DNA of 63,886 bases, filler included. It is 7 parts of 7 records of this genome, joined end to end, with 100 filler letters (N's around TTAATTAATTAA, not from the genome) between each part and the next. Parts side by side here need not be neighbours in the genome. Positions count along the whole stretch, not along the records: positions 35,848 to 39,255 come from SRR11831585_136; 6 more parts are not named here. One strand, given 5' to 3'. The notes beneath the pieces are model-generated. The model saw only the letters and a list, made by a program, of their open reading frames with translations. It did no database searches and was not told the DNA's origin. A program made the position numbers and the translations under genes. Shown piece after piece: positions 35,848 through 39,255 of the stretch. Position 1 is the first letter of the stretch, and each line of letters starts with the position of its first letter.

Positions 35848-38800
35848 TGCACGGGACCGGCAGAGGCGGAGGCAGACGGACCGTAGACGCTGCCCTTGGT
35901 GGCAAGGACCTGGGCCACCTCCTTCGCAAGGATCTCCGGTGGAATGGTGGATCTGTGGGGTGACACAGGGGGGATGAGTGAGAGGACGTTGGAAGCGGTA
36001 CGTGTGAGTAGAAGAAAGCTCGTGTGGAATGAATGAAGGAATGCAACGCGGTCACGCAGTGAGGTACCGTTTGGCGTGGACGACGGTAAGGTCCATGTCG
36101 TTGGTCTTCTGATCCCAAAACAGCACACCCGGCCGGCCGCCCTTCTCCCCCATAAACGCTTTCACGGGAACGTTCAGGTTGAGTGTGATTCCTGCAACCG
36201 AGAACATGTGTGAGTATAAAACGCAGACTCGCAATGATTAACATAGAACAAAAAGGGACACGGACACGCCACAAACAAGGATTCGCAAACAAACAAACCA
36301 CGGCCCCCTCTCTCGAGATACAACAACGAGTGTGTCAGAATAAGCGTCTCATCAATTCATTCAGAATGAGTAGGAGGTTGCTTTGTGTATTCATCACAAC
36401 ACTCTTACGGCAACACATGCAATCACGGAACGTACACAAGCAGACGCCACACATATGCGCGTACCTTTGGCGGCTGCGAATGCCATACCCACAAAATACA
36501 GACAACAGTTGGGTTGAGAGGGGTGCGGGAAAGACTCGGGCCATACTTGGGCGTACTGCACGCACACCGAAGATAAGGAGACAGACAAGACGGAACCAGA
36601 CACGGCTGAGGCGCCCACACACAACTGACACGGAAACCGCATCGCAAATCAAAAGCATACTATAGCCCAGAAAGAACAGCGACAAGAACGAACGTAACCG
36701 CATTCTTTCATCAGTGCCTTTGTGGATACACCACATACCTCTACGTGCTCCACCCACTCGAGATGCATCACGAGAAGGCGAACCTTGGACTCTACGAAGC
36801 CTTGCCTATAGACACACAAACAAGTGCACACACAATTACATAAGCGAATTGAGTAAAATTCTGTGAAACAACAACACAATGCGATAGAAAAAGCACCACA
36901 CTCCAAAGTCGTAGCTCTCATTCTCATCCATCATGCAACGAATCAACCAATACGACAAGCAAGCGCACCATTTCATGAACGCAGCTTCATTCTCCGCTGA
37001 TACCTCCACCATCAAATAGTTCTTATACGCAGAGAAGAACGCCACGCGCTCAAACAACAGGTCCCAGTTCGCCTGCTTCTGTTCAATCTGGAACGCGATC
37101 TTCTCACCGCGTGCAAACTCTGACATACGTCACCATGGTGAGATGCGACGCCAAAACAAACTCAAGCACACACACACGCGCGCGCGCACGCACAGGCACA
37201 CGCAGTCGGTTCAGCTGGATAATAAATACAACAACAGTGACTCCGTAAAACGCACACCCACAAGCGAACTCTCGCAGGCAAGCAGACCCACATACCCTCT
37301 GTCAGCACACGAAGCGACGACTTGGACACGTTGTGTGTGGAATTGAACGCAGGAAACACAGGCGTGATGATGGGCATGAGGTGGTGTGGATTTTTCTGCA
37401 CACAAGAGTGTTACAAAAACCCATACAGAACGAACAGAAGAGATGACCCGACACAACACTGGACCTCACAGTTGACATCAACAGCGCAAGAAACATAAGA
37501 GCCCAGACCGCCACGTCTCTGAACCACTACTCTATAAGAATTAGAAACACACAGCCGTACATCAACAAACGCGTATGCGACGAAACATGAATCGTACCCC
37601 AAAATCCCAGGGCTCTACCTGCGGGTCCATGCCCATCATGTTGACCTCTTGCTGAATCTCCTGTAAGAGGATGGGCTGCGGCCACTTCCACCGCGACATC
37701 ACACGGAAGAACCGCAACACCTGCGGCGGGGAGAGGTGTGTGAGAGTGAGTGAGAAGAACGAAGGTGAAGGAGTAAGACCATTGGATGGTGGACAGCGCA
37801 TATATACGCACACTCTCGATCCGAGTAAATGGCAGAACAGAGTCATAAACACACAGCAAATAGGCACGGCACGAAACGGCACAGCACACAAGTCCTCACA
37901 AGCATCACACACAACAAATCCTTCCCACATACTAGAGTATTGGGCGCTGCGTTGGGGTACAGCTGACACACACGAGCCACCAAGATGGCCCACGAGATAC
38001 CGCCCAAGAATCCAAACGCATTCCCGTAAAGCCCTCTCCCTGCAAGATACAAACAGATACACACAGAGTGAGTGTTGTTCATTCAGAGAACGGACGGGGT
38101 TGCGCAGATGGATGTGAGTGTGGTGGGATGGGACGTACGCTTTGCCCACAACTTGATCGCACGGAGTGCAGTGCGGAAATTCGCAATGTTCGGCACCAAT
38201 CCCAAAATCTCATTTACAATTCTGCTACCTACAGTCACAATATCACGGATCAGGACATTGTGCAAAGCGGCAAGAACAGCAGCTGCCATGACACACATGC
38301 ACACAGCCGTATCCATGACATGAAAATACGAGCACAGCGACATATGCGAACCATGACAGGGCAGTACAATGTGATACAAGGATAACGAGAGGCACGCACC
38401 GTTCAAGGACAACACACTCTTATAATCAATATGCCGTAGAATGTTGGTATCACTCACATCCAGGTTATCCGGAATGGTAGCCAGGGCCAGACGACACAAC
38501 AGCAGATCCATCTGCACGCATCAAGCACAAGCGAATCGTGTTAACATACCGTACAGTACATGAGCGCGGAGGCACACACAAAGCACATACTCACGTCACG
38601 GCAGAAGCAGAACACAAACACGCTTTAAGAGAATGAAGACGGGTTGGACCCATCGAAAGACGCACGTACCTCCACGCCGCTGAACCGCATCTTGATGACA
38701 GGTACAAAGGCGTCCGGTACAGGATTCAGCTCTGTGACCTCCGGCGTATTTCGAAGCATATCCACCAAAGTGGTGAAGAAATCTTCTTTGCGAATGTTCC

Positions 38801-39222
38801 GAGGACAAACACACAATGTATCAATATCTGCACCTGCTCCGTGAACACCCAGCCGATACGACCCAAATGTGAAAATTTTAGCTCCTGCTTGCGCAGCTAA
38901 AGATTCTGCCATGCCCTGTTTCAAACTTACTTGCCTCACCCATTCTTTGACCAAAACATTTACTTTTCCCAGCACTTCTTCACGTTTCAAAGCCTCCTCC
39001 GTCGACTCGAAAAGACCTACTCGCCGCTGTGAATTTAAAGTGAAAAACAGCAGAGGAGCGAGTGTACCGTATTTTGATAATAAATCTACAAGCTCCTTCG
39101 ATGCAATTTGATCAGCCGCAGTCGGCGGAACGGTGGAGATGGGCTGTGAAAGTCCATATCTGAAGGAAAAATGAGAACACTGATTGCCATCATTGCGAAT
39201 TCACGTACTGTTTACCGGACAT
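35848..39222 (-). CDS. Eukaryotic canonical nuclear poly(A) polymerase (PAP1/PAPOLA family), spliced, 13 exons, 3'-truncated
   Basis: Exons (minus): 39222-39209, 39159-39068, 39016-38670, 38511-38400, 38228-38139, 38039-37933, 37720-37598, 37395-37296, 37119-36969, 36805-36739, 36555-36465, 36191-36068, 35952-35848. All 12 introns are GT-AG with compatible phases. Motifs in order: [98 protein letters not shown]. Confidence 0.93.
37166..37194. repeat. Alternating purine-pyrimidine (CA)n(CG)n tract in PAP intron 8
   Basis: GCACACACACACGCGCGCGCGCACGCACA. Confidence 0.8.
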
Positions 39223-39255
39223 TGCTCGTGTCCATTCAGACACAGCAACACTGCG

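Follow-up and report, generated by a model that had tools for sequence, protein, structure and literature searches.

A foreign eukaryotic contig with a predicted intron-rich poly(A) polymerase gene among Escherichia coli K-12 contigs

Here we describe a stretch of DNA of 63,886 nucleotides (hereafter the window), which is not one molecule but seven contigs joined by runs of N and the linker TTAATTAATTAA. One of these contigs, SRR11831585_136, is foreign eukaryotic nuclear DNA, physically unrelated to the surrounding DNA of Escherichia coli K-12, and the poly(A) polymerase (PAP) gene region under study is exactly this contig, positions 35848-39255 (3408 bp). We consider it very probable that the contig is a nuclear DNA fragment of an intron-rich eukaryote, carrying a canonical nuclear PAP and sequenced together with E. 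coli K-12. It holds a gene of 13 exons that belongs to the PAP family and whose catalytic residues are intact; its six neighbours are E. coli contigs, and it has no close annotated relative.

The contig would carry the first ~507 codons of the canonical nuclear PAP of its source organism, a nucleotidyltransferase of the Pol-beta type which would polyadenylate pre-mRNA after its cleavage, in a template-independent and ATP-specific reaction. Three aspartates would hold the two metal ions used in catalysis, and beyond this catalytic part come the central and the RNA-binding domains. The gene would be split by 12 spliceosomal GT-AG introns, one of them probably hosting a box C/D small nucleolar RNA (snoRNA).

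Gene model and enzyme family

Scattered peptides typical of poly(A) polymerase are encoded by the stop-to-stop frames of the minus strand of the contig, and a first-pass annotation, made by reading the sequence alone, had joined them into a minus-strand gene with 13 exons and 12 introns, giving the length and phase of each intron and a frame of 1523 nt. We rebuilt the model by a GT..AG search with those 12 intron lengths imposed, and it was exactly reproduced: from ATG 39222, the 13 exons add up to 1523 nt and 507 stop-free codons (lengths and phases in Table 1), and 12/12 introns have GT-AG borders, the donors being consistently GTAYG or GTGCG and the acceptors YAG. A 13-exon gene was in this way correctly reconstructed by sequence reading alone. 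Little can be concluded from the open frame by itself, since 324 GT-AG combinations of these intron lengths are likewise stop-free, and the gene model was therefore decided by homology.

Introns and exons differ in composition, the former having T 0.36 and A 0.15 and the latter T 0.25 and A 0.23, with TG+GT dinucleotides at 0.255 in introns vs 0.162 in exons. In 10/12 introns a stop codon or a length not divisible by three breaks the frame. Introns 2 and 4 stay in frame and contain no stop, and for this reason rest on homology; for intron 4, two placements of 171 nt (38399-38229 or 38395-38225) are equivalent. Against 13 homologues, 10/12 junctions are gap-free. No stop codon is reached before the contig ends at base 35848, 34 codons into exon 13, so that the gene is truncated at its 3' end and lacks the C-terminal tail, which in canonical PAPs is regulatory, rich in Ser/Thr and equipped with nuclear localization signals.

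The assignment to a family comes from several layers of comparison. Exons 3-12 were scanned singly (10 exons) against Pfam, matches being considered to E<=0.1, and 8/10 match PAP_NTPase, PAP_central or PAP_RNA-bind, collinear with the order of the profiles. PF20750 (PAP_NTPase) reaches 148.2 bits in exon 3, for a cutoff of 27, and 35.7 bits in exon 4; PF04928 (PAP_central) matches exons 5-8 in order, exons 6-8 above the cutoff and exon 5 below it at 15.7 bits; PF04926 (PAP_RNA-bind) scores 24.0 bits in exon 10, which is the cutoff, and a weak 13.9 bits in exon 9. Furthermore, the spliced product, computed from the gene model, aligns with full-length PAPs in single alignments over residues ~2-477, with 47-57% identity and E values down to 1e-180. 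Such an alignment had been set as a test by the first-pass annotation, and these BLASTP alignments span the RNA-binding domain up to residue 477. In the PDB, exon 3 matches 9 distinct sequences, each of them a canonical PAP from cattle, human (gamma), yeast or fission yeast (lowest E, 5.9e-35).

The fold of the Pol-beta nucleotidyltransferase superfamily, for which PF01909 gave a match of 35.5 bits, is common to this gene, to bacterial PcnB and to the non-canonical PAPs. These differ from it, however: no head domain of the PcnB or CCA-adding type appeared among the matches at E<=0.1 in the 10 exons scanned, and the mtPAP-like PF22600 stays at 24.3 bits, below its cutoff of 27, vs 148 bits for PF20750. 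Membership in the group of non-canonical PAPs and terminal uridylyltransferases (Trf4, GLD-2, mtPAP) was considered and rejected on that score under the cutoff and on the PAP-associated domain, which found no match among the 10 scanned exons. At the level of sequence, these comparisons support the view, already put forward in the first-pass annotation, that the gene is a canonical eukaryotic PAP (Pap1/PAPOLA) and not a bacterial PcnB.

As regards the catalytic centre, exon 3 contains the G-S motif (F-G-S) as well as the D-x-D pair (D-I-D), and exon 4 contains the third Asp, which is shared by 13/13 homologues. The D-x-D pair is in register with positions 113/115 of the bovine chain (by alignment offset) and the third Asp with position 167 (by the columns at junction 3), which we take to be the catalytic residues of bovine PAP. 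The earlier claim that the catalytic residues are intact thus stands, with the G-S...D-x-D motif and the third Asp present, and the gene looks functional, truncated only by the end of the contig.

Mammalian PAP alpha and gamma (PDB 1f5a, 1q78, 4lt6) have the same order of three domains and the same G-S/D-x-D/third-Asp centre in register, exon 3 aligning gap-free over chain residues 52-165 (E 5.9e-35), although about half of the residues differ from those of the contig protein. Yeast Pap1 and Schizosaccharomyces pombe Pla1 (PDB 2q66, 1fa0, 7q72) are members of the same family, with E values of 3.5e-34 to 4e-32 for exon 3; the contig gene differs from them by its 12 introns within 1.5 kb of coding sequence.

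The bacterial neighbours and the route into the assembly

As the first-pass annotation had recognized, the other six contigs of the window are E. coli DNA; they match it at 100.0% identity. The three large ones (10.4, 19.5 and 19.9 kb) are K-12: over their full length they are 100.0% identical to the K-12 records DH5alpha, NEB 5-alpha and DH1, so that the bacterium of this assembly is of laboratory origin and no wild isolate. ER-strain records are among the top rows for the three large contigs, MG1655 is equally 100% identical for one of them, and XL1-Blue and TG1 are the top matches for one small E. coli contig.

The PAP contig, in turn, was not matched by any of 5,426 complete E. coli genomes (megablast) or by any of 72,556 plasmids (whole-contig blastn in 'distant' mode), and among the contigs of species-representative prokaryotes exon 3 yielded 266 pattern matches and 0 confirmed relatives. 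Because its neighbours are 100% E. coli and no E. coli genome or plasmid matches it, the contig is read as co-sequenced or contaminating eukaryotic DNA. This agrees with the proposal of the first-pass annotation that foreign DNA of an intron-rich eukaryote, here with 12 introns, had been sequenced with E. coli.

Horizontal transfer of the gene into the E. coli genome, or its integration there, is effectively refuted, and we grant it next to no probability. The sole point in its favour is an assembly common to the gene and to E. coli. The gene, however, lies on a separate contig without bacterial flank, and its 12 spliceosomal introns could not be expressed by bacteria. It is missing from 5,426/5,426 complete E. 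coli genomes, and the host contigs match E. coli at 100%, with K-12 strains as the matches of the large ones.

A second alternative is that the contig is a cloned genomic insert (from a plasmid, fosmid or bacterial artificial chromosome library) in a K-12 cloning host, and does not come from a co-cultured or contaminating organism. We regard this as unlikely. The identity of the large contigs to the cloning lineages DH5alpha, NEB 5-alpha, DH1 and ER-strain, together with XL1-Blue and TG1 as top matches for one small contig, speaks for such a host, but the non-cloning MG1655 is equally 100% identical, so that the type of strain is not told apart. Moreover, vector sequence is found at neither end of the contig, the blastn search against the plasmids was empty, and the contig ends fall within the gene or its leader, as expected for a break in a low-coverage assembly.

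The preferred reading, a eukaryotic nuclear fragment co-sequenced with E. coli K-12, would imply that the DNA of two organisms was sequenced together, either that of a food bacterium and its grazer or host, or that of two samples through laboratory cross-contamination. The contig could alternatively have entered by composition-based binning (its GC content is 0.50, like that of E. coli). Whatever the route, the contig should be marked as foreign and taken out of the bacterial assembly; otherwise, it would be counted as accessory E. coli sequence.

Relatives and phylogenetic position of the source

The gene is an additional member of the well-known PAP family. In itself it is a textbook housekeeping gene, carried by a contig that is co-sequenced or contaminating, and it is of value only for the organism from which it came. 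The protein searches covered a collection of 5.8 billion proteins, EukProt and MMETSP transcriptome entries included. A search with exon 3, the best-conserved exon, found 3,353 proteins of 203-2000 amino acids (aa) at E<=1e-10, and in the whole collection the identity of full-length proteins did not go beyond 70% for this exon and 57% for the spliced product. Among metagenome contigs, 589 pattern matches included 307 relatives, of which 80 were kept, none above 69% identity, and exon 9, used as query for full-length relatives, gave 2 candidates sharing words with it, neither of them significant. The protein atlas returned generic PAP_NTPase clusters only, without a taxon lead. These results uphold the first-pass description of the source as possibly poorly sampled. 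A near-identical match to a known genome, which would end the novelty, was not encountered among the proteins of 203-2000 aa, the best reaching 70% over exon 3.

The best named matches of exon 3 belong to Amoebozoa (Cavostelium, Mastigella, Soliformovum), early-diverging fungi and streptophyte algae. Over this exon, identity is 61-68% for the best matches in Fungi, Amoebozoa and plants, and lower, at 50-57%, for animal fragments. The amoebozoan PAPs (Cavostelium apophysatum, Soliformovum irregulare, Mastigella eilhardi, Balamuthia, Pelomyxa, Dictyostelium) cluster with the metatranscriptome PAPs P0003, P0005, P0006 and P0018, and PAPs of this amoebozoan type are the best overall matches (P0006, 51.9% over 484 aa; P0003, 56.9% over 413 aa). 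Nevertheless, over the whole product the named Amoebozoa, with a median identity of 49.1% to the contig protein, do not stand out above Fungi (50.6%) or plants (48.0%). Given that these three groups are mutually 47.2-52.0% identical, the PAP of the source is as distant from each of them as they are from one another.

For the tree, 60 of the best 120 exon 3 matches were taken after near-duplicates had been dropped, which makes 61 rows with the query; full-length rows of Holozoa, of stramenopiles, alveolates and Rhizaria (SAR) or of excavates are not among them. The query falls outside the sampled fungal clade (support of 99 in the Shimodaira-Hasegawa-like approximate likelihood ratio test, SH-aLRT) and outside the streptophyte clade (SH-aLRT 100). 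The free quick tree places it on the side of Fungi (SH-aLRT 71.6). Constraining it with plants costs 0.43 units of log-likelihood (lnL), with a p value of 0.489 in the approximately unbiased (AU) test, and constraining it with the amoebozoan-type clade gains 7.75 lnL over the free tree (p-AU 0.682), the highest likelihood found. Placements beside Fungi or plants were not rejected by the AU test.

A single close relative was found, P0125, an open reading frame (ORF) fragment of 160 aa present in 3 contigs of the Logan assemblies and detected among proteins of 63-202 aa. It is 95% identical over exon 3 and, when aligned to the unspliced ORF (window positions 38625-39200, minus strand), it is identical at 115/129 residues (89%) over exons 2-3, 14 residues being different. 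The alignment has a single gap of 17 residues, which coincides exactly with intron 2; the existence of this intron is supported, because the gap corresponds to its 17 codons, and P0125 either is without intron 2 or derives from spliced RNA. Beyond ..EVTELN, P0125 continues with unrelated residues that start with V-R, which fits a GTRCG donor, at a point where the contig gene has no intron. The positions of introns would thus seem to differ between P0125 and the contig gene. The comparison hints at recent intron gain or loss, though the differences may also come from a partly spliced transcript.

This relative bears on another alternative, namely that the source has already been sequenced and lies unannotated or unindexed, close protein matches being missing only as intron-rich genes of unannotated assemblies yield no full-length predictions. 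Such a situation is possible, if doubtful. P0125, with 95% over exon 3 and 89% over exons 2-3, shows that close relatives exist in public reads as fragments only, and the searches made here did not cover eukaryotic genome assemblies at the nucleotide level. On the other hand, P0125 is not identical (14/129 residues differ) and its intron pattern seems to be different, no full-length protein passes 70% over exon 3 even with EukProt and MMETSP included, the 2 candidates of exon 9 are not significant, and metagenome contigs do not go beyond 69%.

Several points weigh against a canonical nuclear PAP from an intron-rich eukaryote as proposed above. The splice junctions are predictions from DNA and homology, and two of them are uncertain: junction 7, which leaves an insertion of 4 residues vs the homologues (an alternative donor 21 nt upstream produces a deletion of 3 residues instead), and junction 11, which falls in a variable loop that is shortened here. 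Exons 11 and 12 are without a Pfam match when scanned alone. The start codon is the least certain part of the model, exon 1 having just 14 nt and being overlapped by an upstream open reading frame (uORF); given a leader of 33 nt, the true start could be upstream, beyond the end of the contig. Finally, the query has the longest terminal branch of the 61-row tree (1.45 vs a median of 0.24), which could be due to a divergent paralogue or to small errors of the model instead of a divergent lineage.

The uORF mentioned above consists of 7 codons (39212-39235, minus strand) and overlaps the proposed ATG out of frame.

The long branch would also be accounted for if the contig carried, in place of the working enzyme of the organism, a PAP paralogue that has diverged or a pseudogene copy in decay, and the insertion at junction 7 and the shortened loop at junction 11 could be counted among the signs of this. 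We nevertheless hold it to be very improbable: 507 codons are open across 13 exons, the three catalytic Asp and the conserved motifs of the central domain are present, and the 95% identity of P0125 over exon 3 points to purifying selection.

With the gene taken as a canonical nuclear PAP of a co-sequenced eukaryote, it is tempting to go one step further and to attribute the contig to a deep-branching or essentially unsampled lineage, possibly amoebozoan-like, grown on laboratory E. coli, absent from annotated public proteomes and with a fast turnover of introns. We advance this tentatively and, taken as a whole, think it rather unlikely. If the assembly holds further contigs of the source organism, a poorly sampled lineage could be placed.

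The intron 11 candidate and feature coordinates

Intron 11 probably hosts a box C/D snoRNA, to judge from its boxes and terminal stem, with the layout GTGATGA ... CTGA ... TGATGA ... CTGA flanked by GAGTG/CACTC. It is alone among the 12 introns in having RTGATGA..CTGA spaced 45-130 nt apart, and the guide that precedes D' agrees in full with the consensus of snoZ105. The Rfam scores of the candidate are below the gathering thresholds (snoZ105, 28.8 bits vs 45; SNORD96, 20.9 vs 43). An intron-hosted snoRNA would fit a nuclear eukaryotic gene.

A separate Rfam match, to SCARNA7 (36785-36930, minus strand) at the border of intron 9 and exon 10, was rejected: with 22.5 bits vs 65 and an E of 0.013, it is most likely due to chance.

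Table 1. Features of the PAP contig and of its large bacterial neighbours (positions in the window)
Feature	Position	Strand	Basis or remark
Whole eukaryotic contig	35848..39255	-	3408 bp, GC 0.503, spacers on both sides
5' leader, 33 nt, with 7-codon uORF (ATG 39235 to TAA 39212)	39223..39255	-	read from sequence
Exon 1, 14 nt, ATG 39222	39209..39222	-	donor GTACGT; junction 1 aligns with ..YG(V/I/L)(T/S)xPIS of homologues
Intron 1, 49 nt, phase 2	39160..39208	-	read-through meets a stop after 6 codons
Exon 2, 92 nt	39068..39159	-	model and homologue alignment
Intron 2, 51 nt, phase 1, in-frame, stop-free	39017..39067	-	17 codons absent from 13/13 homologues; equals the P0125 gap
Exon 3, 347 nt, nucleotidyltransferase core, G-S and D-x-D	38670..39016	-	PF20750 3.4e-43, profile 31-145; bovine 1f5a 5.9e-35
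Intron 3, 158 nt, phase 0	38512..38669	-	gene model
Exon 4, 112 nt, third catalytic Asp (M-D-L-L)	38400..38511	-	PF20750 profile 146-182, 1e-08; Asp in 13/13 homologues
Intron 4, 171 nt, phase 1, in-frame, stop-free	38229..38399 (or 38225-38395)	-	junction gap-free
Exon 5, 90 nt	38139..38228	-	PF04928 profile 1-14
Intron 5, 99 nt, phase 1	38040..38138	-	gene model
Exon 6, 107 nt, central domain	37933..38039	-	PF04928 profile 16-50, 2.9e-16
Intron 6, 212 nt, phase 0	37721..37932	-	gene model
Exon 7, 123 nt, last 4 codons an insertion vs homologues	37598..37720	-	PF04928 profile 53-90
Intron 7, 202 nt, phase 0	37396..37597	-	gene model
Exon 8, 100 nt, HLMPIITP motif	37296..37395	-	PF04928 profile 91-120
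Intron 8, 176 nt, phase 1	37120..37295	-	gene model
Exon 9, 151 nt, start of RNA-binding domain	36969..37119	-	PF04926 profile 2-21, weak, 0.044
Intron 9, 163 nt, phase 2	36806..36968	-	gene model
Exon 10, 67 nt	36739..36805	-	PF04926 profile 26-47, 3.6e-05
Intron 10, 183 nt, phase 0	36556..36738	-	gene model
Exon 11, 91 nt	36465..36555	-	no Pfam match alone; inside full-length alignments
Intron 11, 273 nt, phase 1, longest, host of snoRNA candidate	36192..36464	-	gene model
Candidate box C/D snoRNA in intron 11	36328..36404	-	terminal stem; C, D', C', D boxes
Exon 12, 124 nt	36068..36191	-	no Pfam match alone; alignments extend to residue 477
Intron 12, 115 nt, phase 2	35953..36067	-	gene model
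Exon 13, 105 nt seen, frame open at contig end	35848..35952	-	gene model
Large E. coli K-12 contigs	1-10443, 10544-30069, 39356-59254		full-length 100.0% matches

Among the bacterial contigs of the window, a minor observation concerns those at 30170-35747 and 61582-63886, whose best-matching complete genomes have insertion sequences within the matched regions, an IS4-like element of the ISVsa5 family and IS1B, and whose matches are therefore split in two.

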